Source: an uncultured bacterium (GTDB lineage: Bacteria > Patescibacteriota > Patescibacteriia > CAIQCM01). From it: 64,000 bases of DNA. The notes beneath the pieces are model-generated. The model did no database searches, was not told the DNA's origin, and saw only the letters and a program-made list of their open reading frames with translations. Below are positions 5,266 to 54,651 of this stretch, one piece after another. The position numbers and the translations under genes are program-made. Positions within the stretch are counted from its first letter, which is position 1, and each line of letters opens with the position of its first letter. The DNA is taken from positions 387,740 through 451,739 of the forward strand of contig OY970181.1 in NCBI GenBank assembly GCA_963708045.1, given 5' to 3'.

Positions 5266-5307
5266 GATTAAAAAACAAACCTCCCCGAGAGGAAGGTTTG
5301 TTTTTTG
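5266..5307. terminator. bidirectional intrinsic terminator (3' of rnpB on the minus strand)
   Basis: caaaccttcctctcggggaggtttg followed by a U-run on the minus strand. Its reverse complement also has a T-run on the plus strand. Confidence 0.6.
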
Positions 5308-5750
5308 TCCGTGCGTCTATAAGCCGAATTCTGTCATCAAGTTTGCTTTCGCAAAATTGAGCAATGGTTATCTATCTGGGATTCATATTGCTATGAACCT
5401 CAAGCGGCCGTACGGCCTTGCACCGAATAGGTGTTTGCACCGGCTGTCATCTCTGACAGTCCCGCGTGAGCTCTTACCTCACGATTTCACCCTTGCTTCT
5501 CCCGTTAAGGAGGTTAGCGGTATGTTTCTGTTGCGTTCCCTTAAGCGTTGCCGTCTAAGGGATACCTTATCTTGCGATAAGACTTTCCGTGGGCTTGGGA
5601 AAAAATTTCTCTCGCGAGAGGCGAAATCATTTCTTGCTCCCCGCCGCTGTTAGCGGCTATTACTTGCCTTACGCCTTGCGGCATAAGAGGTGTTCGGACT
5701 TTCCTAATCAATTCAAATAAATGAATTGAGCAACCATCCGACGCGCGGAC
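5308..5750 (-). ncRNA. rnpB: RNase P RNA (bacterial type A)
   Basis: Minus-strand conserved blocks: GGAAAGTCCGAACAC (P4 5' strand), GGGTGAAATCGTGAGGTAAGAGCTCACGC, GGTGCAAGGCCGTACGGCCGCTTGAGG, and ACAGAATTCGGCTTATAG (P4 3' strand). P1 pairs the 5' gtccgcgcgtc with the 3' gacgcacggac. The ORF 5258..5653 (+) on the track is spurious. Confidence 0.8.
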
Positions 5751-29974: not shown

Positions 29975-30046
29975 GGGCACGTAGCTCAGCGGTAGAGCGG
30001 ACGTCTTATACACGTCTGGTCCTAGGTTCGATCCCTAGCGTGCCCA
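29975..30046 (+). tRNA. tRNA-Ile with anticodon UAU (decodes AUA)
   Basis: 72-nt cloverleaf. Acceptor GGGCACG/CGTGCCC. Anticodon stem GACGT/ACGTC. Loop CTTATAC gives anticodon TAT. Confidence 0.75.
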
Positions 30047-39514: not shown

Positions 39515-41232
39515 ATGTCTCCACTCTCAAAAATAAAACAAGAAATCATCAACGCGATTGCCCAAGTTTATCCAAACTCAACTTTGGTTGTTTCGGATAT
39601 TGTTCCCGCGCCAAGTCCGGCGCTCGGTGACCTCGCCGTACCAATGTTTAAGCTCGTAAAAGTTTTAAGTAAGTCGCCGAGCGCGATTGCCGAAGAGCTT
39701 CGCGAAAAAATGCCGTCTTTAAAAACGATTCAGAGCGCCGAAGTTGCCGGGCCGTATTTAAATTTGCGCTTGAATCAATCAGTAGTCATAAACAACGTAA
39801 TGGCGGCCATTACCAAAGAAAAAGCAAAGTACGGCAACGGAAAAGCAACTAAGGAAAAAATAATGGTTGAATTTGTCGCGCCGAACATTAATAAGCCGCT
39901 TCACTTGGGACACCTTAGAAACGCCGCGCTTGGCGAATCACTCTGCCGGATTTTAGAAGCCGCCGGCAACACGGTTGTTCGCTCTAATTTACTAAGTGAC
40001 AGGGGTGTTGGTGTTGCCAAAGCGATGGTGGCCTACGAACATTTTGGTGGCAACGAAACGCCAAAAAGCTCGGGAATGAAAGGTGATCATTTTGTTGGAA
40101 AATATTACGTGATGTTTGAACAAGAAAAAGTTCGGCACCCAGAAATTGAAAACGAAGTGGCTGAGTCGCTTAGAAAATGGGAAGCGGGGGACAAGGCCAC
40201 GCGCGCTCTTTGGCGGGTAATGACCGACTGGTGCGTAAAGGGACAAAACGAAACGCTAAAAATGCTTGGCGTTAAATACGACAAAGTTTATCGCGAAAGC
40301 GCGTTTTATAATGAAGGCCAGAAAATGGTTTTGGCGGCCTTGGAAAAAGGGATTTTTTCTAAAGACGAAAAAGGAAACGTTGTCGCCAAACTTCCGAACG
40401 AACCTGATAAAGTTGTTCTTCGTGCTGACGGGACGGCCGTCTATATTACAACCGACTTGCCGCTTACGGTTAAAAAAATGACTGAATTCAAATTGTCGCG
40501 GTGCTTGTGGGTTGTTGGAATGGAACAAGACCAGCACTTGCGCCAGCTTACTGGTATTATGCGGCTTTTGGGTTACAGGTGGGTAGACGCGCTTGAACAT
40601 GTTTCTATGGGCACGTCGCTCTTCCCGAAGGCCGGATGAAGTCGCGCGAAGGCACGGTCGTGGACATTGATGAATTAGTAGAACACCTTTCCAAGCTCGC
40701 GGCGGCGGAAATTAAAGAGCGCCACGACTTTTTGGATCAAGCCGAAGTGGACAAGCGCGCCGAAGAAATCGCTCTTGGCGCGGTTAAGTTTTATTTGTTG
40801 TCAGTTACGGCGACGAGCGGAATGACTTTTAATCCAAAAGAGTCGTTGTCCTTTAACGGCAAGACTGGTCCGTATTTGCAGTATACAAATGCACGCATTG
40901 CTTCTATTTTGCGCAAAGCCGCTCATGATAAAATAAAAATTGGCCGAATTGACGCCTCTAAACTTATTGAGCCGACGGAGTGGCAGCTTGTTTTGCGCTT
41001 GTCTGAGTTTGCCGATGCTATAGAAGCGGCCGCAAGCGGTCGCGACCCTTCGGTAATTGCCCGATATTGTTACGATCTTTCAAAATCATTCGCCGAATTT
41101 TACGAAAACGTTCCGGTTATAAAAGCCGAAGCAATATTTCGCTCCTCGCGGCTCGCGCTTTCGGCCGCCGTCGGGTTGGTGCTTGGTCGTAGTTTGGAAC
41201 TGCTCGCCATCCCCGCGCCAAAGGAAATGTAG
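39515..41232 (+). CDS. argS: arginyl-tRNA synthetase, interrupted by a 1-nt frameshift near 40636 (two ORFs 39515..40639 and 40636..41232)
   Basis: N-terminal Arg_tRNA_synt_N, HLGHLRN (HIGH-like), and catalytic core in ORF1. KMSKS-equivalent MKSREG plus DALR anticodon-binding domain (YLQYTNARIASILRKA) in ORF2. The frame shifts inside the ccggatgaag run. Confidence 0.8.
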
Positions 41233-41753: not shown

Positions 41754-42512
41754 AATGTGTACCACTATATTTACGATTCATTTTTAACCGATCCCAAATA
41801 CGCAAAGATCCTTGGTAATATAGAAAATCGGCTGACGGACTTGGGAATTTTTGGCAGCGTTCATCGCCTGGCGCTTTTTAAGTCAATGAAGGGCGCGATT
41901 AGCGACGCCGTGCGCCGCGGCGCAAAAACGGTCGTGATTGTCGGCGACGATCTTTCGGTTGCCAAAGCCGTTGACGCGATTCCCGAGTTTAAAGACGCGA
42001 TTTTTGGGATTATGCCAATTGGCACGAAAAACAACATCGCCGAACTTTTGGGTATTCCGATTGGCGAAGCCGCTTGCGACACACTCTCGGCGCGGCTTAT
42101 TGAAGAATTGGATTTGGGCAAAGTAAATAATCATTATTTTTTGACTTCGCTTCGCGTGCCGGGTGTTGTGAAAGCCGAGTGCGACGGGCGCTATACGGTT
42201 TCGCCGATTTCTGCCGGTGAAATCTGTGTGAATAATTTTTCTATTGATGGTTCGGCTTCTAACCCGCGCGACGGCTTGCTTGAAACAATGGTCAAGACAA
42301 CCAAGCGAAATTTTTTTGGTTCGCTTTTTGCTCGCACGCCAGCGGCGGCGAGTGTTAGTGTTTTTCCCGTGGAGAAAGCAATTATACGTTCTGGTAATGG
42401 CGAAGAGGTAACAGGGATGGCCGATGGTCAAGCAATTTCCGACGCTGAATTTCGCGTTGAAGTGATGCCGCGGCATTTTAAAGTGATTGTCGGCAAAGAA
42501 CGGAAGATATGA
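41754..42512 (+). CDS. DAGK_cat-family lipid kinase-like protein (degenerate GGDGT motif: VGDDLS)
   Basis: IFGIMPIGTKNNIAELLGIP and LDLGKVNNHYFLTSLRV match the DAGK_cat conserved blocks. Probable GTG start at 41754; the track ORF from 41661 overlaps bactofilin. Confidence 0.5.
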   Translation, partial: NVYHYIYDSFLTDPKYAKILGNIENRLTDLGIFGSVHRLALFKSMKGAISDAVRRGAKTVVIVGDDLSVAKAVDAIPEFKDAIFGIMPIGTKNNIAELLGIPIGEAACDTLSARLIEELDLGKVNNHYFLTSLRVPGVVKAECDGRYTVSPISAGEICVNNFSIDGSASNPRDGLLETMVKTTKRNFFGSLFARTPAAASVSVFPVEKAIIRSGNGEEVTGMADGQAISDAEFRVEVMPRHFKVIVGKERKI

Positions 42513-43420
42513 GCAAATACGTTGACTTGCACGCGCATACGACCTATTCCGACGGCCATGATACGCCGTCGGAGGTTGTTAAAATGGCGGCCGAGCAAAA
42601 TGTTTCAATTCTCGGCATCGCCGATCATGACAATTTGGAAGGTTTAAAAGAAGCGCTTGTGGCTGGCAAAAAATATGGCGTCAAAATTGTTTGCGGTGTG
42701 GAAATATCAACCGTCTTTCATAATTCAACTATTCATTTGCTTGGTTACGGCTTGCCATTAGATGACGCCGCGTTTAATAGTTTTTTGTCGGGCATTTATT
42801 GACAAAGAAAAAATCGATTGCTTGAGGTTGTTAAAAAATTAAACGAAAAATTTAATGTCGAAGGGCGGCGGGTGGTGAATCTTAAAGATTATGAAAATAC
42901 GCTGGGAAAATATTTTAATTTTGAAAAAACAGCGCAATATTTAATCGTCAACGGTTTTTTTACGGATTTTGAAAAAACTAGAAAATTGCTCATTGGCTTA
43001 AGTGATGGTGGGGGATATTTTGTTTCTGTTGCTGATGCAATACGGGCTGTTCACGAAGCCAATGGGCTTGCAATTTTGTCGCATCCTTTTGCTCGCGGCA
43101 CGTCGCTTAAAAAAATTGATCCGACGCCGGCGGGGCAAGAGGTATTGCTTAAAGAAATAATCGCGGCGGGTATAGACGGGATGGAGTGTTATCAGTCGGA
43201 ATACGGCCCCGAAGAAACGGCGCTCGCCCTCGCGCTCGCCCTGAAATATAATTTATTGGTATCGGCTGGAAGCGATTGGCACGGCGCGATTTGCGACATT
43301 CCAGGGGATATGAAAGACCGAAAATCTTTTTATCCCGAGCATGTCGGCGGGTTAAAGATTGCGCCACAAACAGTCGCGCCGTTCCTTGAACGCCTTGGCA
43401 TAAACGTTGACAAGGATTAA
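42509..43420 (+). CDS. PHP-domain phosphoesterase with in-frame TGA at 42800-42802 (ORFs 42509..42802 and 42818..43420 are the same frame)
   Basis: N-terminal DLHAHTTYSDGH and C-terminal SAGSDWHG PHP motifs. The single TGA reads ...FLSGIY*QRKNRLLEVVKKL... and the frame is conserved across it. Confidence 0.65.
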
Positions 43421-43457: not shown

Positions 43458-43543
43458 GCTCGGGTGGTGAAATGGTATACACGCTACCTTGAGGTGGTAG
43501 TACCCGTAAGGGTGTGGAGGTTTGAGTCCTCTCCCGAGCACCA
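43458..43543 (+). tRNA. tRNA-Leu (anticodon GAG), CCA encoded
   Basis: 86 nt with long variable arm. Anticodon loop TTGAGGT. Acceptor GCTCGGG/CCCGAGC. 3' ACCA. Confidence 0.85.
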
Positions 43544-43671: not shown

Positions 43672-44250
43672 ATGTTAATAAAAGAGTTTGCACAAGTTAT
43701 CGGTGGTTATGTCTTTCGGGAAGCGATACAGCCGGATAATAACGGCGATATCTGTGTTTTTCAAGCCAAAGACCTCACTGCTGGCGAAGCTATTGAAAAC
43801 GTTGGTACACTTACAAAAATTTCTTATAACATCCCCGAGTACGCCGGTCATCTTAAAAAGAACGACATTTTGGTTGTCGCTCGGGGTATGAGGTCAGGGT
43901 CATTTCGGTCGGCGGTTTTTGTTTCCGACGCACCAAACGTAATCGCCTCGTCCTCCATCCACATAATTCGGATAACCGCCGCTGGCGTAATGCCGGAATA
44001 TGTTTCGCGGTATCTTAATTCAAAAATTGGCCAAGACGCGCTTACGCAGATCGTTTCCGGTTCGTATATCGGCTCCCTGCCGCGTAAGGAAGTGGAAAAA
44101 ATAAAGATCCCCATCCCGACACTAGAAAAACAAAAAGCAGTTGTGGATCTGGATCGGAATATACGTGAGCAAGAAAAAATTATCAACCGTCAGAGCGAAA
44201 TAAAGCACAATCTTATGAACGCAATCTTTACCAGCCTAGCCGCTAAATAA
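43672..44250 (+). CDS. hsdS: Type I restriction-modification specificity subunit, half-size (single target recognition domain)
   Basis: 192 aa: one TRD plus the conserved C-terminal helix region typical of HsdS halves. Confidence 0.65.
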   Translation: MLIKEFAQVIGGYVFREAIQPDNNGDICVFQAKDLTAGEAIENVGTLTKISYNIPEYAGHLKKNDILVVARGMRSGSFRSAVFVSDAPNVIASSSIHIIRITAAGVMPEYVSRYLNSKIGQDALTQIVSGSYIGSLPRKEVEKIKIPIPTLEKQKAVVDLDRNIREQEKIINRQSEIKHNLMNAIFTSLAAK

Positions 44251-44255
44251 ATATT

Positions 44256-45770
44256 ATGCCAACTGAAAAAAAATACACTCAGGAAGACTTAAACAAAACG
44301 CTTTGGGCGGCGGCTGATTCGTCACGCAGCAATGTGGACGGTGGTGTTTACAAGGATTACGCCCTCACGATGCTATTTTTAAAATACGTCAGCGATTTGA
44401 ATAAAAAGCGCTACGCCGAGTATAAGGCGCGTTTTAAGAACGACGAAAAGCGCGTTGAAGAAAAAATGAAGCTGGATCGCTTTTATCTTCCTCCTAAGTC
44501 GTCGTTTGATTACATCTACAGTAAGATTGAGGAAGACAACATTGGCGAAGAAATTAATAAAGCGCTACACCGCATTGAAGACGCCAACAAGGAAAAGCTG
44601 GACGGCGTGTTTAGTGTGGACTTTAATTCTGAATCAGTACTGGGAAAATTGGATTCGCGCAATAAAATGCTCCGCCATCTTATTCAGGATTTTGCCAAGA
44701 TTGACCTTTCGGATGTCGGCGACGACATTATCGGAAATTCGTACATGTACATGATTGAACGCTTTGGCGCCGATGCTGGGAAGAAAGCCGGAGAATTTTT
44801 CACAACTAAATCCGTGGCGCGGCTCGTGGCGATGCTCGCTGAACCAAAAGAAGGCGACCGGATTTCCGACCCTGCTTGTGGATCGGGCGGCTTGCTTCTT
44901 TTGGCTGGCGAAGAGGTTGAAAAGAAAGGCTCAAAAAACTACGCGCTTTATGGTCAAGAATCAACTGGCTCCACTTATCAGCTTGCACGGATGAATATGT
45001 TCTTGCACGGCAAAGACTCGGCGCGGATTGAATGGGGCGACACGCTTAATAACCCACTCTTGGTTGAAAATGACCAGCTTATGCATTTTGATGTGGTCGT
45101 TGCCAATCCGCCGTTCTCGCTTAAAAAGTGGGGCGCCGAACACGCCGGATCAGATAAATACAACCGTTTTTGGCGCGGCATTCCGCCCAAGGACAAAGGC
45201 GACTTTGCCTTTATTACTCACATGGTGGAAACCGCCAAACCCAAAACCGGCCGCGTGGCCGTTATTGTTCCGCACGGTGTACTTTTTAGGAGCGGTGCCG
45301 AAGGTAAAATCCGCACCGAGCTATTAAAAGAAAATATCATTGATACCGTGATCGGATTACCTGCTGGTTTATTTCAGACAACCGGTATCCCGGTCGCCGT
45401 TTTGGTTATTGACCGCTCACGCGAAAAAGGCGGCGCGAATGAAAAGAAGAAAGATGTTTTGTTCATTGAGGCCTCTAAGGAATTCAAACCCGGAAAAGCG
45501 CAAAACACCTTGACCGACGAAAACATCGCCAAAATTTTTGACACCTACAAACAACGCAAAAATATCACTAAGTTTTCACGCAAGGTTGAATTAAAGGAAA
45601 TTGAAGAAAATGATTTCAATCTCAACATCACACGCTATGTTGACACCTTCATTGAAGAAACTCCGATAGACATCAAAGCCAACCTCCGTGAACTCGCCGC
45701 CCTTGAGCCGGAGCTTAAGAAGCTAGAAAAACAGATGGATGAGTATCTAAAAGAGCTTGGAATTAAATAG
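44256..45770 (+). CDS. hsdM: Type I restriction-modification DNA methyltransferase subunit (N6-adenine)
   Basis: HsdM N-terminal domain, then an N6_Mtase domain with NPPF motif (VVANPPFS). Confidence 0.9.
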   Translation: MPTEKKYTQEDLNKTLWAAADSSRSNVDGGVYKDYALTMLFLKYVSDLNKKRYAEYKARFKNDEKRVEEKMKLDRFYLPPKSSFDYIYSKIEEDNIGEEINKALHRIEDANKEKLDGVFSVDFNSESVLGKLDSRNKMLRHLIQDFAKIDLSDVGDDIIGNSYMYMIERFGADAGKKAGEFFTTKSVARLVAMLAEPKEGDRISDPACGSGGLLLLAGEEVEKKGSKNYALYGQESTGSTYQLARMNMFLHGKDSARIEWGDTLNNPLLVENDQLMHFDVVVANPPFSLKKWGAEHAGSDKYNRFWRGIPPKDKGDFAFITHMVETAKPKTGRVAVIVPHGVLFRSGAEGKIRTELLKENIIDTVIGLPAGLFQTTGIPVAVLVIDRSREKGGANEKKKDVLFIEASKEFKPGKAQNTLTDENIAKIFDTYKQRKNITKFSRKVELKEIEENDFNLNITRYVDTFIEETPIDIKANLRELAALEPELKKLEKQMDEYLKELGIK

Positions 45771-45773
45771 TCT

Positions 45774-47588
45774 ATGAAAATTTCATCATTAGAAATTAAA
45801 GACTTCCCGCCAATTAAAAATCTAAAGATGGAAAATCTTGGGGATATTGTAATTATTGCTGGAGCAAATGGTTCGGGGAAAAGCAGACTTAAAGAGGCTA
45901 TAGTAAGTACCTTTCAAGGTGGGAATCAAATGTCCATCTCTTTGCTGGCAACAAGAGAAAAAGAAAATGAAGATTTTGGAGGAGGTACTCTAACTGCTAC
46001 ACAAGGGGTTGCAAGTCAAACGCTAGCTGAGTATATGAGGAAGAGGCGGTATGGCCGTGGCCAGTATGTTGGTTCTCTGGTCCAAATAGATTCGCAACGA
46101 AATATTCAGACCACTCAATACCCACAGGTTAGTTGGCAAGTTTCTGATCCAGATGAAGTCGAAACGCCAAGTACTTTTTATTATCAAAATTTTACCAACA
46201 GGTGGCAAGACTTCATGACTTATATTCATAAAAAAGTAGCTGCCTACCAAAATCAACTAGCTACGGAAGTTATCAATGGGTCAGAAATAACAGCAAAGAC
46301 TATTAAGGAAAAATTGCCACACCCACTACAGAAATATAAAGAAATCTTTAAAACTCTACTTTCGGAAAAAGAGCTTCTTGATATTGATCCATTATCACCT
46401 CGTGAATTTCAATACCGGGATAAAACCGGCGTAGTCTTACCATTTAATTCCTTAAGTTCTGGCGAGCAAGAAGTTGTTAAGATTCTGTTTGATGTTGCAA
46501 GGAAAGATATAAAAGACTCGGTAATTATTGTGGATGAGCCTGAACTTCATTTACACCCAACTCTTACATTCAAATTAATTGAAGCTCTTAAATCCGTGGG
46601 GGATCACACAAATCAATTCATATTTTTGACACACTCTGCTGATTTAATTTCTACCTATTACTCGACTGGTAATGTTTATTTTATAGACTCAGAGCAGGGT
46701 GGCGCTAACCAGGCACATAGGCTAAGCGATCTTAATCACAGCCATAAGGAGCTGGTAAGCTTGATAGGTGAAAATCTTGGGCTGTTTGCAGTAGGAAAAA
46801 AACTTGTATTTGTTGAAGGTGAAGATTCTAGTACGGACAGGCTTGTATACCATGCATTGGCACAAAAGTATTTGCCAGAGGCAAAGGTCATACCCGTTGG
46901 TTCAGTTGAGAATTTGATTACTTTAAATGTTTTTGAGCGGCAGATTAGAAATTCTATATTTGGAATTGACCTATATATGGTCCGAGATAAAGATGGGCTA
47001 TCTACTACTCAAATTAGCGCTCTTGAAGATGGTGGTAAGATAAAGTGTCTTAGGAAAAGACATATTGAAAATTATTTTCTTGATTCAGATGTTTTGTTTA
47101 AAGTTGCGGAAAAGCTTTATATAACCACTACAAAACCTACTGTTACACATCAGTATATTGAAGAACAGCTTAAAATCATTGCTTCTGAACAAGTTAGTCT
47201 TAACTTACTTCAAAATACAAAAGAATATATAGCAACAAATCATAACTTTGATATTCCTACTGTCAAATCACTTGATACAAAAAATTGCGTTGATGTGGTT
47301 AATGAGTTCTCTTTTGAAATAGCGAGTGTTTTACATAGCCTTGTGTCTAACCTGTCTGACGTAAAGTTGAAAGAATGGATGAACGGAGAAAAAGAAAGAC
47401 TTGATGGCGCGTTGACCAGCGATAAGTGGAAAGATGAATTTAGGGGTAAAAATATTTTCTCAAAGTTATGTAGTGATGTCCTTGGTGAAGATAAAATCAA
47501 AATACGACAAGTATATATTGACGTTGCTTTGAATGAAAAACCGGAAGTTTTTAGTGATATTAAAGGAATACTGGAAAGTTTTAAGTGA
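45774..47588 (+). CDS. OLD-family-like ABC-ATPase + TOPRIM-like nuclease (Gabija GajA-like architecture), embedded in the hsd operon
   Basis: Walker A IIAGANGSGKS, signature-like LSSGEQEV, Walker B IIVDEPELHLHP, and H-loop FLTHS. C-terminal TOPRIM-like Glu (FVEGEDSSTD) and DxD (YMVRDKDG). Start is 3 nt after the hsdM stop, and the stop overlaps the next hsdS start. Confidence 0.65.
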   Translation: MKISSLEIKDFPPIKNLKMENLGDIVIIAGANGSGKSRLKEAIVSTFQGGNQMSISLLATREKENEDFGGGTLTATQGVASQTLAEYMRKRRYGRGQYVGSLVQIDSQRNIQTTQYPQVSWQVSDPDEVETPSTFYYQNFTNRWQDFMTYIHKKVAAYQNQLATEVINGSEITAKTIKEKLPHPLQKYKEIFKTLLSEKELLDIDPLSPREFQYRDKTGVVLPFNSLSSGEQEVVKILFDVARKDIKDSVIIVDEPELHLHPTLTFKLIEALKSVGDHTNQFIFLTHSADLISTYYSTGNVYFIDSEQGGANQAHRLSDLNHSHKELVSLIGENLGLFAVGKKLVFVEGEDSSTDRLVYHALAQKYLPEAKVIPVGSVENLITLNVFERQIRNSIFGIDLYMVRDKDGLSTTQISALEDGGKIKCLRKRHIENYFLDSDVLFKVAEKLYITTTKPTVTHQYIEEQLKIIASEQVSLNLLQNTKEYIATNHNFDIPTVKSLDTKNCVDVVNEFSFEIASVLHSLVSNLSDVKLKEWMNGEKERLDGALTSDKWKDEFRGKNIFSKLCSDVLGEDKIKIRQVYIDVALNEKPEVFSDIKGILESFK

Positions 47589-48820
47589 TTATGAAAATTA
47601 ATAAACCACAAACAAACATACCTCATGGTTGGAATTTTTATAAACTTAGCGATCTCCTTACTGTTGTTGTAGATAATCGTGGTAAAACACCGCCTATTCA
47701 AACAAGTGGGATCCCTATGGCAGAGGTAAATGCTATTGGCGATAAGAATATTGAATATTCTGAAATAACTAAGTTTGTTAGTGAAGAAACTTATAAAACA
47801 TGGTTCCGTAAACATTTAGAGAAAAATGATATCCTCTTTTCTACCGTTGGAAGAACTGCGTCTTGCTCTCTTTATACTGCAAAAATAAAGACGGTAATTG
47901 CTCAAAATTTAATAGGGTTAAGATTCGGAAAAGATAATCCTGAGTTTATGTTTTATCTTTTAACCCAAGACAAGAACAATCAACAATTTAAGAATATTGA
48001 GATGAACGCCGCACAGCCAAGTGTTAAAGTATCCCAAATGATACGACTTGAATTTTTGCTTCCACCCCTCCCCGAACAAAACCGGATTGTTGCAGTATTG
48101 GAAACTTGGGATAAGGCGATTGAAAAATTGGCGGAAAAAATTGAGATTAAAAAAGAGATTAAAAAAGTTTTAATGCAAGAATTATTGACAGCCCAGAAGC
48201 GTCTAATCGGATTTAAAGATAAATGGGCGAACGTAAAACTTGCTGATATTGCTGAAATTTTTTCGGGAGGAACGCCCGATACAAGCAATCAGGATTTCTG
48301 GAGTGGTGAGATAAATTGGATAACTCCGACAGAAATTACTAAAACAGGCAAATATATAGTATTAGAAACAGAGAAGAAGATCACAGGCGCTGGTCTTAAA
48401 AATTGCTCAGCAAAATTACTACCTAAAAATTCTTTGGTCATATGTACTCGTGCGACGGTTGGAGAATGTTCAATTTCTACATATCCAATTTGCACAAACC
48501 AGGGATTTAAAAATTTAGTTCCTAAGAAAAATACAACAGTTGAATATCTGTATTATTTTATTAAGTCAATTAAATCAAAACTTATAAAACTAGGATCCGG
48601 TAGTACTTTTCTTGAAGTCTCAAAGGGTGACATTGAAAAATTAAAATTATATCTACCACCACTAACTGAGCAAATTGCGATTGCAAATATTTTGACCACA
48701 GCCGATAAGGAAATTGCTGAACTCGAAAAAACCCTCTCACTTTTAGAAGAACAAAAAAGATATCTTCTTAACGAACTGATTACTGGTACAATCAGAACAC
48801 CTGAAACATTATCAGTCTAA
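47585..48820 (+). CDS. hsdS: Type I restriction-modification specificity subunit (two target recognition domains)
   Basis: 411 aa with two TRDs separated by conserved helical repeats (LPPLPEQNRIV / LPPLTEQIAIA). Confidence 0.85.
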   Translation: MIMKINKPQTNIPHGWNFYKLSDLLTVVVDNRGKTPPIQTSGIPMAEVNAIGDKNIEYSEITKFVSEETYKTWFRKHLEKNDILFSTVGRTASCSLYTAKIKTVIAQNLIGLRFGKDNPEFMFYLLTQDKNNQQFKNIEMNAAQPSVKVSQMIRLEFLLPPLPEQNRIVAVLETWDKAIEKLAEKIEIKKEIKKVLMQELLTAQKRLIGFKDKWANVKLADIAEIFSGGTPDTSNQDFWSGEINWITPTEITKTGKYIVLETEKKITGAGLKNCSAKLLPKNSLVICTRATVGECSISTYPICTNQGFKNLVPKKNTTVEYLYYFIKSIKSKLIKLGSGSTFLEVSKGDIEKLKLYLPPLTEQIAIANILTTADKEIAELEKTLSLLEEQKRYLLNELITGTIRTPETLSV

Positions 48821-48830
48821 AAATAACAAT

Positions 48831-49670
48831 ATGAAAAAAGTACTATCCGCCATCAATCATCCGGCCATGTTTGAACAGTCCGAGGTTTGACGGGTTTGGC
48901 ATAAAGAGCAATGGTTTTTTGCGATAAACGATGTGGTTGGGGTTTTGTCGCAAACCTCAAATGTTACCGATTATATTAAGAAAATGAGGCAGCGTGATGC
49001 TGAATTAGCCAAAGGGTGGGGACAGATTGTCACCCCCCTTTCCGTTAAAACAAAAGGCGGCGTTCAAAAGCTCAATTGTGCCAGTCTAGCCTCTATTTTT
49101 CGCATTGTTCAGTCAATTCCTTCGCCACAAGCTGAACCTTTTAAGCGTTGGTTGGCAAAAGTTGGGGGCGAGCGGATAGAAGAAATGCAGAACCCCGAAC
49201 TTGCGCTTAACCGTTCTCGTGAATATTGGAAAAAGCATGGCCGAAGCGAAAAATGGATTCAACAAAGAATGATGGGACAAGAATCTCGCAATAGGCTGAC
49301 GGATTACTGGAAACAGACAGGGGTTAAGGAGGGACAGGAATATGCCGTGCTCACGAATATTATCCATCAAGAATGGAGCGACTTGAGCGTAAAAGATCAC
49401 AAAGCGCTTAAGGGGTTGTCCAAGGTCAATAATTTACGCGACCATATGAATGAGGCCGAGCTAATTTTTACAGCTTTGGCAGAGCTTTCTACTAGGCAGA
49501 TTGCTGAGACGGAAAAAGCCATCGGGTTTGATGGAAATAAGTCGCCAGCCTTGCGCGGAGGACAAATTGCAAAGAATGCACGCTTGGCGCTTGAGGAAAA
49601 AACTGGAAAACGAGTAGTGAGCGGAGAAAATTATTTAACAGGCGGACGGAAAACAAAACGATTAAAGTAA
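48831..49670 (+). pseudogene. Bro-N/DinD-like (KilA-N-type) DNA-binding domain protein with in-frame TGA at 48888-48890
   Basis: Translation from ATG 48831 gives MKKVLSAINHPAMFEQSEV*RVWHKEQWFFAINDVVGVL. The segment after the TGA resembles the Bro-N/DinD N-terminal motif (IR..xxxxxWFxAxDV). The track ORF starts only at GTG 48933. Confidence 0.5.
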
Positions 49671-49674
49671 TCAT

Positions 49675-52600
49675 ATGTTAGAAAACGTACACTTTGACGA
49701 AGCACGGCAATCGCAACTCCCCGCCTTGGAGCTGCTTTTGGCGATGGGATACAAATATATTTCAGCAGAAGAATGCTTACGCCAGCGTGGAGGTGATACG
49801 AGTAATTTTATCCTTACAGATATTGCCGCTGAAAAATTGATGGCGATCAATGGGTATGAGATTAACGGGGTAGAATCAAAATTTAGCGAAAAGGATGTTC
49901 GGGATGCGATTGATGAGTTGGAACATATTCAATATGAAGGACTGATTGATACAGCGCAGAAAATTTATAATATCGTTATGCCGACTTCGGGGGGGAAAAC
50001 GATCAAGGTAAGCGTTGGCGGAAAAACAGTATCTAAAAATTTTCGTTTTATTGATTTTCAAAACCCACGGAATAACACTTTTCATGTGACGGCCGAATTT
50101 GAGGCTTCGGGTAAGCAGAATATTCGGCCGGATATTGTTTGTTTTGTTAATGGTATTCCGCTTGCAGTCATTGAGAACAAAAAATCAAGCGTTGATGTTG
50201 TTGAGGCATTAAACCAGATGAACCGGAACCAAGGGGCTGAATTTTGTCCCAAGCTTTTTACCTACACACAGTTACTCGTGGGAACGAACGGCAAAGAACT
50301 TAAATATGGCACGACCGGAACGCCGAATAAGTTTTATGCGGTTTGGAAGGAAAAGGGGATGACAGATGACGAAATTGAAAGCGAAGTCGTTTCGGTCATG
50401 CAAAAGAAAATTTATTTAAATGATTATAACAATGTCTGCGATGACCTAAACGGTGATACACGCGATGCTTTACCGCAATCGGTTCGTTTAGTTACGGAAC
50501 AGGACAAAGGGATCGTATTTTTGTTTAAGCCGGAGCGGCTTCTTGAACTAACCAAGAACTACATTCTCTTTGATGCCGGAGTTAAAAAGCTTTCCCGTTA
50601 TCAGCAGTTTTTTGCGATCAATAAAATGATGGCGCGTATTTTTGAGGAGGAAGCATCGCCAGTAGGCGGCGAACGGCGGCATGGCGGTTTAGTATGGCAT
50701 ACGCAAGGGTCAGGCAAATCGCTTACAATGGTTATGTTTGTAAAAGCGTTAATTGAGAACCCGCACATTATCAACCCGCGCGTTATTATTGTTACTGATC
50801 GTCGGGATCTTGATAAACAAATCAGGGATACATTTAAGAATTGCAATTTAAAAAAAGAAGTTATACAGGCGACCAGCGGCCAGCATTTGCTTGGTCTGAT
50901 TAATGACAAAAATCTTGCCGTAATTACGACCCTCGTACATAAGTTTGAATCGGCCTCAAAGAAAAAGACCGGTTTAGTTGACTACGATAAAAATATTTTT
51001 GTCTTGGTTGACGAAGCGCACCGCAGTCAAAACGGCATTGCGAACATTGAGATGAACCGGATTATTCCGAACGCTTGCTATATCGGTTTTACCGGTACGC
51101 CGCTCATGACCTCGGAAAAAGAAAGCTGGAAAAAGTTCGGCGGCTACATTGACCGCTACACAATTGACGACGCTTTGGCCGATAAAATTATTTTGCCGCT
51201 CATCTACGAGGGGCGGTATGTGGACATGGTGCAAAACGAAGAGCAGGTTGATCGCCAAGTTGAGCGGATCACCGCCGACCTAAACGACAAGCAAAAGCGC
51301 GATCTGCAAAAATATATTGGTTCAAGGATTGTCAAAGATAATCCTCAGCGCATCGTAGAAATTTCATACGACATTGAAAAGCACTATATAAGGAACTTCC
51401 AAAACACCGGCCTAAAGGCGCAAATTGTCGCGCCGTCCAAATTTTCGGCCATTCTTTTCCAAAAGTTCTTTCAGACGAACGGCAAAATTCGCACCGCTGT
51501 CGTAATTTCCGATGAACACGACGATGGCGACGAAGCTGATACTCACAAAAAAGAAGTGGTTGATTATCTTAATACCGTGCGGAAAAACCACAGTAGCGTT
51601 GAAAGTTATGAGAAAGAAGTAATCAATAGCTTTAAAAACAATGAAGACGGGATTGAGATAATTATCGTTGTTGATAAACTGCTGACGGGTTTTGATGCGC
51701 CCAGAAACACGGTGCTGTACTTGGCCGAAGACTTGCGCGATCATAATCTGCTTCAAGCCATTGCCCGCGTCAATCGTTTGTTTGAAAACAAAAAACTTCC
51801 CAAGACGGCGGGATATATTATTGATTACTCGGAAAACGCCAAGAATATTGATACGGCGATGAAACTCTTCGGCAATTACGACAAGGATGACGTTAAAGGG
51901 ACGCTTATTGATGTTAAAGAAAAGGTGGAGGAATTGGAACAGAGCTATGCGCTAGTGCATGATCTTTTTGGCGGCATAAAAGGATCGTCCGACGACGAAG
52001 CTTTTTTGCGCGTTCTTTCAGACGATCCTAAGCGCGAAATGTTTTATAAGTCGCTCGCCGCGTTCATTAAAAACCTAAATGAATGTTTTGTTCTTCAGGA
52101 TTTTGTGCATGAATTCAAACATTTGGATATATATACGCGCGAGCTTAAAAAGTTAATGGAACTTAGGAAGGCGGCGAGCTTAAAATATGCCGATCGCATT
52201 GACTTGGCCGAATACAAACAGTCGCTCGTTAATATCCTTGATAAATATATTGATGCTCGTGGTGTTGAGTTATTAACCAAGCAGATCAATATTACTGATC
52301 GTAAGCAGTTTGAAGAAGCTATTGATACTTTAGGTTCGGACAGGTCAAAGGCGGAGGCGATTGCCATGCAAACTAATAAAACTATTAGCGAAAAAATGGA
52401 GACTGATCCAGAATTCTATGAACGGTTCTCTAAAAAAATTGATCTTATTCTGCAAGAGATGCGCCAGGGCAAGTTAGCCGATGTTGCCGCGCTTAAACAG
52501 CTAAAGTTGATTAAAGACGATGTGATTAATAAGAAAGATAACGACCTGCCTGAACCAATTGTCGCTCTTAAAGGGTCGGATGTCTTTTATCGCAACCTGC

Positions 52601-52863
52601 GGGATTGCTTTGTTTTGTTTAAACTACCCGACGACTTATATATTGCCATTATTTTGGATATTTTTAATCTGGTTAAGCGTGAGGCGATTGTTGATTGGTA
52701 TAAAAACCTTGACGCCAAGCGTCAGATTATTAATAAGCTCGACGACTATCTTTATGATGTCGTTAAGAACGAGAAAAAAATTGATTTGTCCGACGACAAT
52801 ATGAAGTTAATTATTTCAAGCGTGCTTTCGCTCGCAGAAAATAATTATGAGCTCTTTGTTTAG
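49675..52863 (+). CDS. hsdR: Type I restriction enzyme R subunit (helicase-nuclease)
   Basis: N-terminal nuclease region. SF2 helicase motifs (TQGSGKSLTMV, DEAHRSQ) and HsdR C-terminal domain. 1062 aa. Confidence 0.9.
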   Translation: MLENVHFDEARQSQLPALELLLAMGYKYISAEECLRQRGGDTSNFILTDIAAEKLMAINGYEINGVESKFSEKDVRDAIDELEHIQYEGLIDTAQKIYNIVMPTSGGKTIKVSVGGKTVSKNFRFIDFQNPRNNTFHVTAEFEASGKQNIRPDIVCFVNGIPLAVIENKKSSVDVVEALNQMNRNQGAEFCPKLFTYTQLLVGTNGKELKYGTTGTPNKFYAVWKEKGMTDDEIESEVVSVMQKKIYLNDYNNVCDDLNGDTRDALPQSVRLVTEQDKGIVFLFKPERLLELTKNYILFDAGVKKLSRYQQFFAINKMMARIFEEEASPVGGERRHGGLVWHTQGSGKSLTMVMFVKALIENPHIINPRVIIVTDRRDLDKQIRDTFKNCNLKKEVIQATSGQHLLGLINDKNLAVITTLVHKFESASKKKTGLVDYDKNIFVLVDEAHRSQNGIANIEMNRIIPNACYIGFTGTPLMTSEKESWKKFGGYIDRYTIDDALADKIILPLIYEGRYVDMVQNEEQVDRQVERITADLNDKQKRDLQKYIGSRIVKDNPQRIVEISYDIEKHYIRNFQNTGLKAQIVAPSKFSAILFQKFFQTNGKIRTAVVISDEHDDGDEADTHKKEVVDYLNTVRKNHSSVESYEKEVINSFKNNEDGIEIIIVVDKLLTGFDAPRNTVLYLAEDLRDHNLLQAIARVNRLFENKKLPKTAGYIIDYSENAKNIDTAMKLFGNYDKDDVKGTLIDVKEKVEELEQSYALVHDLFGGIKGSSDDEAFLRVLSDDPKREMFYKSLAAFIKNLNECFVLQDFVHEFKHLDIYTRELKKLMELRKAASLKYADRIDLAEYKQSLVNILDKYIDARGVELLTKQINITDRKQFEEAIDTLGSDRSKAEAIAMQTNKTISEKMETDPEFYERFSKKIDLILQEMRQGKLADVAALKQLKLIKDDVINKKDNDLPEPIVALKGSDVFYRNLRDCFVLFKLPDDLYIAIILDIFNLVKREAIVDWYKNLDAKRQIINKLDDYLYDVVKNEKKIDLSDDNMKLIISSVLSLAENNYELFV

Positions 52864-53578
52864 CGGAAAAAAGGAATTTATTTTTGGTTCGTTTGCATAT
52901 CATTACGACCTTGTAATGCAAGACCGAAAAACGTTTAGCCTTACAGTTAAGCCTGATCTTGGTATAACCTTAAAATGTCCACATAGTGCCGGAGAAGAAC
53001 GGGTTGAAAACTTCCTAAAGAAAAAATGGTTTTGGCTTGAGAAGCAGTTGTCATTTTTTAAAAAATATCAACGAAAGGTATATCAAAAGGAATATATTTC
53101 AGGAGAGGGATTTTTGTACCTAGGCAAGCAATATACGTTGATGATAAAAAAAGCGTCCGAAGACAGAGTATCTCTAGTCAAGGGGATTATGCTGGCACAA
53201 ACAAAATTTGGTACAAGCGACATGTTGCATACACAAATATTATTACGCGATTGGTATTTTGACAGGATTTCTAAAATATTTTTTGAACGTTTTAAAAAAG
53301 TGTTATCGTATTTTGATTATAAAAATGTTCCCCCTTTGAGGATAAAATATATGCAAAAACGGTGGGGGAGTTATTTGGACGAAAAAATGATAATTTTAAA
53401 TCCAAAATTGATTCACGCGCCCAAGGAATGCATTGATTATGTAATTACTCACGAGCTTTGTCATATTAAATACAAAGAACACAATAAAAATTTTTATAAA
53501 TTACTAAGCGAGAAATATCCCAAGTGGGAGAAAGCTAAAGAAAAGCTGGAAATAATCGGAACACACGAAATACCTTAA
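52847..53578 (+). CDS. DUF45/YgjP-like M48-family zinc metallopeptidase (WLM-type), commonly hsdR-associated
   Basis: HExxH motif ITHELCHIKY. 243 aa. Overlaps the hsdR stop by 17 nt. Confidence 0.75.
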   Translation: MSSLFSGKKEFIFGSFAYHYDLVMQDRKTFSLTVKPDLGITLKCPHSAGEERVENFLKKKWFWLEKQLSFFKKYQRKVYQKEYISGEGFLYLGKQYTLMIKKASEDRVSLVKGIMLAQTKFGTSDMLHTQILLRDWYFDRISKIFFERFKKVLSYFDYKNVPPLRIKYMQKRWGSYLDEKMIILNPKLIHAPKECIDYVITHELCHIKYKEHNKNFYKLLSEKYPKWEKAKEKLEIIGTHEIP

Positions 53579-54578: not shown

Positions 54579-54651
54579 TGCACGCTGTAGGGATCGAACC
54601 TACGGCCTTCTCCGTGTAAAGGAGTTGCTCTACCGCTGAGCTAAGCGTGCG
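54579..54651 (-). tRNA. tRNA-Val (anticodon UAC)
   Basis: 73-nt cloverleaf on the minus strand. Acceptor CGCACGC/GCGTGCG. Anticodon loop TTTACAC. T-loop GGTTCGATCC. Confidence 0.85.

Follow-up and report, generated by a model that had tools for sequence, protein, structure and literature searches.

In E. coli PARIS, a hexamer of AriA sequesters AriB, and the T7 anti-restriction protein Ocr binds to AriA (PMC9122126, PMC10802264, PMC11464382). An ATP-dependent rearrangement then frees AriB, which dimerizes and cuts tRNA-Lys along with a small number of other tRNAs, and translation stops (PMC10802264, PMC11464382). Ocr-type activation and tRNA cleavage are known for PARIS from E. coli B185 alone (PMC9122126, PMC10802264, PMC11464382). 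Proteins in which the two parts are fused (AriAB) were described together with PARIS itself (PMC9122126; also PMC11464382). Here, we describe a 604-residue protein, very probably of this fused type, encoded between the hsdM and hsdS genes of a Type I restriction–modification (R-M) operon from an uncultured member of the Patescibacteriota (contig OY970181.1; the 64,000-nucleotide stretch analyzed is hereafter called the window, and all coordinates are window positions). The protein shares with PARIS (Rousset et al. 2022; Deep et al. 2024; Burman et al. 2024) the AriAB sequence profile, an AriB-like effector and a conserved set of acidic residues of similar order, but it is very divergent from E. 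coli AriA and AriB, with a shorter ATPase and a tethered effector.

The initial annotation of the window considered the arrangement undescribed. This does not hold, since fused AriAB, RloAB in Type I R-M, PARIS in BREX and a survey of embedded systems have all been published. Campylobacter RloAB, in a Type I R-M locus, was called a “PARIS-like system within an RM system” (Deep et al., PMC10802264; Miller 2005 is discussed there). It has in common with our locus an ATP-binding cassette (ABC) ATPase and a TOPRIM-type partner within an hsd locus, but RloAB and AbiL consist of two separate genes, with an RloB-type partner, and are structurally distinct from PARIS according to Deep et al. (PMC10802264). 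The PARIS embedded in the BREX system of Salmonella D23580 has been dissected, and did not respond to Ocr (PMC11341690). Nesting in a methylation-based first-line system and the rationale of an Ocr-like inhibitor are the same here; the outer system is instead Type I R-M, PARIS is a single gene, and the site is the hsdM–hsdS junction. Payne et al. surveyed known defense systems that reside inside Type I R-M, BREX or DISARM, with Ocr inhibiting the outer system and triggering the inner PARIS, and PrrC was found to be almost exclusively embedded (bioRxiv 10.1101/2024.01.29.577857). PrrC and RloC (EcoprrI-type) resemble our protein in having an ABC-type ATPase head and a nuclease in a Type I R-M operon, with an anti-anti-restriction backup role and, probably, a tRNA target. 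They differ in carrying an anticodon-nuclease domain rather than TOPRIM, in their location between hsdS and hsdR rather than between hsdM and hsdS, and in that close relatives of our protein also occur without R-M. A recent review names PrrC and PARIS “RM guardian systems”. The protein described here is a divergent member of the PARIS family in a type of arrangement that was already known; what we add is the recurrence of one specific junction across diverged Type I backbones, together with adjacency to a Type II system.

Family and domains of the 604-residue protein

The gene is a single open reading frame (ORF) on the forward strand, 45774..47588, with an ATG start and a TGA stop. As the initial annotation had described, it begins 3 nt past the hsdM stop and its own stop overlaps the hsdS start: hsdM (44256..45770) ends in TAG, followed by TCT and then the ATG of the 604-residue gene, and the GTG at 47585 that opens the longest hsdS ORF overlaps the TGA. 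An in-frame ATG at 47591, 2 nt past the stop, is an alternative hsdS start, chosen when genes were called independently on an identical contig; the junction is tight whichever start is used. The gene is considered real because the protein has 770 homologues, many of them of similar length (≈604 aa) and 57–85% identical. An alternative genetic code in which TGA is a sense codon, raised by some homologues being labeled as Gracilibacteria and by an in-frame TGA in the nearby Bro-N gene, was rejected because the AriAB homologues terminate exactly where this ORF has its TGA, and long ORFs are unfragmented.

The following domains and motifs were identified in the protein:

45774..46700, + strand: ABC ATPase domain, residues ≈1–309 (Pfam AAA_21, AAA_15)
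45861–45884, + strand: Walker A, GANGSGKS, residues 30–37
46074–46094, + strand: Q-loop region
46452–46475, + strand: ABC signature, LSSGEQEV, residues 227–234
46521–46559, + strand: Walker B, VIIVDEPELHLHP, residues 250–262
46623–46637, + strand: H-loop, FLTHS, residues 284–288
46791..47081, + strand: TOPRIM core, residues ≈340–436
46815, + strand: catalytic Glu, E348, at the end of strand 1
46836, + strand: D355
46986–46994, + strand: D405-x-D407, after strand 3
47067–47072, + strand: E432–N433
47085..47585, + strand: C-terminal helical bundle, residues ≈438–604, as in AriB

The full set of ABC ATPase motifs and the C-terminal TOPRIM acidic residues listed by the initial annotation were thus all found. 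In the ATPase half, Pfam AAA_21 (E = 1.4e-18, 68.5 bits) and AAA_15 (2.8e-18, 67.1 bits) both matched above their cut-offs, and residues K36, Q104, S228–G230, D254, E255 and H287 were invariant in 60 homologues. Among PDB sequences, the match with the longest aligned ATPase stretch was AriA (8ux9_B; residues 136–295, E = 1.1e-07). The full-length Foldseek search was dominated by the ATPase; an AriA–AriB entry at rank 49, with a 306-residue chain, could not be assigned to either AriA or AriB and was not used.

The C-terminal half carries FVEGEDSS (residues 346–353) and MVRDKDG (402–408). Its conserved acidic residues occupy the canonical sites of a TOPRIM domain, behind strands 1 and 3 and in the helix that follows. 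In 60 close homologues, E348, D355, D407 and E432 were invariant and D405 was conserved in at least 90%; in family members only 19–50% identical, E348, G349, D355, D405, E432 and N433 were invariant, and D407 was conserved in at least 90%. The order and spacing of the acidic residues are similar to those of E26/D30/D88/E90/E122 in AriB, a tentative pairing in which the E-to-D distance is seven residues compared to four in AriB. There was no invariant lysine across the C-terminal domain family. An exhaustive search with residues 310–604 yielded a rather small family of 226 clusters at 50% identity, most of them the C-terminal part of fused proteins of 600–700 aa. The whole protein had no direct match to Pfam DUF4435. 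Relatives of the C-terminal domain did reach this family (P0197, 28.9 bits; P0220, 41 bits; P0254, 36.3 bits; Pfam cut-off 27), and plasmid homologues (tblastn, E = 3e-18) are annotated by PGAP as “DUF4435 domain-containing protein”. When the DUF4435-positive relatives were run against PDB sequences with phmmer, AriB was not reached, and a Foldseek search of the isolated C-terminal domain model against PDB returned nothing significant. Structurally, the effector domain matches AriB best, and it shares with AriB a TOPRIM core followed by a helical bundle.

The best PADLOC profile for the protein was AriAB (PDLC02981; E = 3.7e-60, 202 bits), aligning residues 160–571 with profile positions 246–657 of 694, i.e., across the ATPase C-lobe, the TOPRIM domain and most of the helical region. 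Other PADLOC models scored far lower, including GajA (2.5e-15, 54 bits), Old (7.8e-17, 59 bits), AbiLi (7.2e-18) and retron ATPase-Toprim, and these matches lay mostly in, or started from, the ATPase part. DefenseFinder and PADLOC define the fused form operationally by such a match, to a profile made from ATPase–DUF4435 fusions. The fused-model thresholds of Rousset et al. (80 and 20 bits) were also exceeded, although those hidden Markov models (HMMs) differ from the PADLOC profile and the thresholds may not transfer. The protein is thus very probably a fused PARIS-family (AriA–AriB) protein and not specifically an OLD or GajA protein. The initial annotation, which called it OLD/GajA-like, was right about the ATPase–TOPRIM architecture, but the family is a different one, and similarity to GajA and Old, both in profile and in fold, is much weaker than that to AriAB and AriB. 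Of the families named there for profile searches, AAA_15 and AAA_21 were recovered, DUF4435 was reached through relatives only, and PrrC was not among the top PADLOC matches. We suggest that such proteins be annotated as PARIS-family (AriAB) defense proteins rather than as “AAA family ATPase” or “OLD family endonuclease”.

Several other assignments were considered and rejected. Gabija would require a full-length match to the GajA profile and an adjacent GajB/UvrD-like helicase; Pfam and PADLOC found no such helicase among the neighbors (hsdM, hsdS, Bro-N, hsdR and YgjP-like), in agreement with the initial annotation, and the GajA match was not full-length. For OLD class 1 and 2, neither profiles nor structures gave the best match, and the conserved catalytic lysine is lacking. 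PrrC/RloC is inconsistent with a C-terminal half made of TOPRIM and a helical bundle, with the absence of a PrrC model from the top PADLOC matches and with the position between hsdM and hsdS. The NCBIfam models MADS3 (19.7 bits, cut-off 420) and MADS5 (39 bits, cut-off 400) scored far below their cut-offs, and the R-M genes here are the canonical MTase_I, Specificity_I and REase_I. Finally, for AbiL/RloAB, the AbiLi ATPase model alone matched (7.2e-18, residues 6–323), and a Pfam scan of the C-terminal half recovered no domain family.

Recurrence beside restriction–modification systems

A first survey, made in GTDB representative genomes, found relatives of at most 59% identity only, mostly stand-alone and seemingly without R-M linkage. 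Closer relatives, from metagenomes, reversed this picture. In the window, as in loci L081–L088, L090 and L093–L095 (L numbers denote loci of relatives), the gene is placed between hsdM and hsdS. This was the case for all homologues at least 70% identical with readable flanks, and for several relatives of 61–65% identity as well. Where hsdM or hsdS directly abuts the gene, the gaps are −13 to +17 nt; where a Bro-N gene intervenes, 46–121 nt separate it from ariAB.

The surrounding R-M systems are diverse. In the window-type backbone (L085–L088, L093 and L095), HsdM is 74–88% identical to that of the window. L081 and L094 have a MerR-fused HsdM (40% identical in L081), with AriAB proteins 83% and 72% identical to ours, and the HsdR of L081 has a T1RH-like C-terminus. 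L082–L084 combine an HsdM of 31% identity and an EcoR124_C-type HsdR with an AriAB of 73% identity, and L090 has an EcoEI_R_C-type HsdR and an AriAB of 61% identity. Overall, the HsdM proteins are at most 88% identical to that of the window and, at the low end, escape detection by tblastn (24–28% between lineages), while AriAB is still 61–83% identical. In addition, the branching of a neighbor-joining AriAB tree disagrees with the grouping by R-M backbone, with L081 as the sister of the window and L082 as that of L094. A 69%-identical homologue (L109, 1992–5812; also L108) follows, after 32 nt and in the same orientation, a Type II R-M system composed of a C-5 cytosine methylase and an HpaII-family endonuclease. 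Homologues of 51–65% identity were stand-alone or lay beside other defense genes (Cas9, a caspase–Schlafen protein, AbiTii).

The subclade thus occupies the hsdM–hsdS junction in no fewer than four diverged lineages of Type I R-M, and in one case comes right after a Type II R-M system. The recurrence of the junction, together with the stand-alone relatives, argues for an autonomous, single-gene guard that has repeatedly joined R-M systems. The R-M-linked interpretation of the initial annotation depended on the C-terminal half not being of the PrrC type and on homologues being linked to R-M; the C-terminal half is TOPRIM, and the linkage to hsdM and hsdS is recurrent.

The operon and its surroundings

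A complete, co-oriented Type I R-M operon (hsdM, hsdS and hsdR) surrounds the 604-residue gene, in the order half-size hsdS, hsdM, 604-residue gene, hsdS, Bro-N/PDC-S13, hsdR and YgjP-like metallopeptidase:

43672..44250, + strand: half-size hsdS, 192 aa, with one target-recognition domain (Pfam Methylase_S 2.4e-09; PADLOC Specificity_I 1.1e-17)
44256..45770, + strand: hsdM, Type I DNA methyltransferase (Pfam N6_Mtase 2e-98, HsdM_N 1.4e-20; PADLOC MTase_I 4.4e-124)
45774..47588, + strand: fused PARIS-type gene, AriA-like ABC ATPase and AriB-like TOPRIM nuclease (PADLOC AriAB PDLC02981)
47585 (GTG) or 47591 (ATG)..48820, + strand: hsdS, full-length specificity subunit (Pfam Methylase_S 1.2e-47, two domains; PADLOC Specificity_I 3.8e-71)
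48831..49670, + strand: Bro-N, PADLOC candidate PDC-S13, a second embedded gene (PADLOC PDC-S13 1.2e-94; Pfam Bro-N)
49675..52863, + strand: hsdR, restriction/translocase subunit (Pfam HSDR_N, SWI2_SNF2, ResIII, T1R_D3-like; PADLOC REase_I 1.4e-142)
52847..53578, + strand: YgjP-like metallopeptidase, last gene of the cassette (Pfam YgjP-like 6e-50)

The operon has two specificity genes, the half-size hsdS before hsdM and the full-length hsdS. A half-size hsdS (≈190 aa) is present at the same position in L085–L088 and L093, 34–67% identical across that R-M lineage. The YgjP-like (WLM/SprT-like) gene, which had no PADLOC match, shares its first 17 nt with the 3′ end of hsdR and also follows hsdR in L081 and L085–L088 (six related loci). 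Both the hsdM–hsdS and hsdS–hsdR junctions are insertion hotspots in L086, L088, L081 and L090, with cargo that varies by relative: one or two Bro-N genes, KilA-N, SDH_protease (S49-like), DUF4325/HATPase_c_2 and small ORFs of unknown function.

The Bro-N/PDC-S13 gene has an in-frame TGA at 48888–48890 (codon 20), opposite an Arg of the L086 homologue, and a clean ORF starts from a GTG at 48933 (245 aa). On a contig from another sample encoding an identical protein, the gene was called intact (279 aa). The TGA could reflect a nonsense mutation (CGA to TGA), strain polymorphism or an assembly error. How far it can be trusted is affected by possible frameshifts upstream, where arginyl-tRNA synthetase (ArgRS) is found in two overlapping ORFs in different frames (catalytic part, 39515–40639; DALR domain, 40636–41232), and an ORF for a 97-aa PHP-domain protein comes just before an unassigned one of 200 aa (42509–43420). 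These split genes are candidate frameshifts, and could be assembly errors or pseudogenes.

The cassette is flanked by tRNA-Leu(gag) (43458–43543, +), 128 nt upstream, and by tRNA-Val(tac) (54579–54650, −), just past a DUF475/TerC gene on the downstream side. Its neighbors are housekeeping genes (TyrRS, ArgRS, thymidylate kinase and ThyX) and not a larger defense island. When direct repeats of the att type were sought on either side of the cassette, short chance matches were all that appeared. In the promoter and terminator scan, promoter matches did not exceed the expectation from shuffled sequence, and the scan was uninformative as to internal promoters. Elsewhere in the window, a bacterial class A RNase P RNA (155 bits; 5304–5749, −) confirms that this is a bacterial chromosome, and a tRNA-Ile with the anticodon TAT (UAU) is encoded at 29975–30046 (+). 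A tRNA-Ile with a UAU anticodon is uncommon in bacteria.

Proposed mode of action and its significance

The probable role of the protein is that of a single-chain PARIS-type backup, in which a trigger switches on an RNA-cutting nuclease. In the uninfected cell, the ATPase head would keep the nuclease inactive. A phage-encoded trigger, most likely a DNA-mimic anti-restriction protein that disables the surrounding HsdMSR, would then bind to the ATPase part, and this binding, coupled to ATP binding and hydrolysis, would turn on the TOPRIM two-metal site (E348, D355, D405, D407 and E432). The activated nuclease would cut an essential RNA, most likely tRNA as AriB does, so that translation halts and the infection is aborted. 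The domain identity, the intact catalytic motifs, the AriB-like fold and the recurrent R-M linkage are observed here; from E. coli PARIS we infer the class of trigger, RNA as the target and abortive infection. The fused protein would act autonomously, with no need for physical contact with the Hsd subunits, and embedding would let it be expressed and inherited together with the first-line system for which it is the backup; ariAB is expected to be co-transcribed, and probably translationally coupled, with the Type I R-M genes. Because the effector is covalently tethered, release of AriB followed by dimerization cannot apply literally, and activation would have to occur in cis or by re-oligomerization. 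The suggestion in the initial annotation of an R-M-linked abortive-infection backup that answers anti-restriction is in line with PARIS, already known as an abortive-infection system that anti-restriction triggers.

Several observations weigh against this interpretation. By Foldseek (top matches, full length), the ATPase fold is no closer to AriA than to PtuA and the ABC ATPases of retrons. At ≈310 residues, the ATPase is also ≈150 residues shorter than AriA (464 aa), and the hexameric, trigger-binding architecture of AriA may perhaps not be conserved. The C-terminal 287 aa had no match to Pfam DUF4435 (PF14491) or Toprim even at E ≤ 10, where only a spurious ROS_MUCR match appeared, and an HMM built from 25 diverse C-terminal domains matched no AriB, OLD or GajA among PDB sequences. 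The lack of response to Ocr by the embedded Salmonella PARIS shows that the trigger class is not simply transferable. Lastly, no experiments on any fused PARIS were found in the literature searched, in which the single-chain form appears experimentally uncharacterized.

An unlikely alternative is that the protein is coupled to R-M as PrrC is, with HsdM2S1 or HsdMSR binding it and holding it latent until an anti-restriction attack frees it, so that the R-M complex acts as the sensor, or as a decoy of the Ronin type. PrrC–EcoprrI and RonA–HsdMS are precedents, and the constant hsdM–hsdS junction, with its short gaps, would favor stoichiometric co-translation with M and S. However, homologues of 51–65% identity occur without any hsd gene within 4–10 kb, one homologue adjoins a Type II R-M system instead, and canonical PARIS senses Ocr directly via AriA. 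A specific, co-evolved interface is also hard to reconcile with AriAB proteins 61–83% identical beside HsdM proteins that are mutually only 24–40% identical. It is equally doubtful that AriAB in this subclade alone has become a physical accessory on M2S1, a PARIS-derived effector plugged into an R-M sensor or decoy; if true, this would explain why the same junction is used in four diverged Type I lineages.

We consider it somewhat less likely still that the protein is a DNase of the OLD/GajA type, an ATP-regulated TOPRIM enzyme that nicks or degrades phage or host DNA. It shares with OLD (P2 Old, Bp/Ts OLD) and GajA the superfamily architecture of an ABC ATPase and a C-terminal TOPRIM domain in one polypeptide, and there were weak profile matches to Old, GajA and retron ATPase-Toprim models. 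However, the Old and GajA matches fall mainly over the ATPase C-lobe, profile and fold similarity are weaker than to PARIS, and the GajB/UvrD partner is lacking. Moreover, OLD DNases need a catalytic lysine, which is lacking in AriB and RNase M5 (PMC10802264), and no lysine is invariant throughout our family.

The base composition of the locus is uneven. GC content dips to 32–39% across window positions 46000–49000, covering ariAB (36%) and hsdS (34%), compared to ≈45% on both sides, 46% in hsdM and 46% in the window as a whole, which suggests that ariAB and hsdS have a history distinct from that of hsdM and hsdR. The least probable explanation is that ariAB is a selfish, addiction-like stabilizing module or a passive hitch-hiker in mobile, insertion-tolerant R-M operons, with no functional tie to restriction: the separate acquisition suggested by GC, the unrelated Bro-N, KilA-N, SDH_protease and DUF4325 genes inserted in the same operons and the selfish benefit of embedding discussed by Payne et al. 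(bioRxiv 10.1101/2024.01.29.577857) are in its favor, but the use of the same junction in four diverged Type I lineages, with Type II adjacency in addition, goes beyond what chance hitch-hiking would produce, and association with R-M fits known PARIS biology.

As a PARIS-type backup, the locus would be a natural example of the “guardian” concept, in which second-line abortive-infection modules reside inside the first-line systems that phages disable. The junction shared across at least four unrelated Type I backbones, together with the Type II case, provides comparative evidence of selection for PARIS travelling with restriction systems. In a single-chain PARIS, the published mechanism of release from a hexamer is unusable, and the compact, highly conserved 604-residue clade would lend itself to studying the way in which a tethered sensor–effector is switched on.

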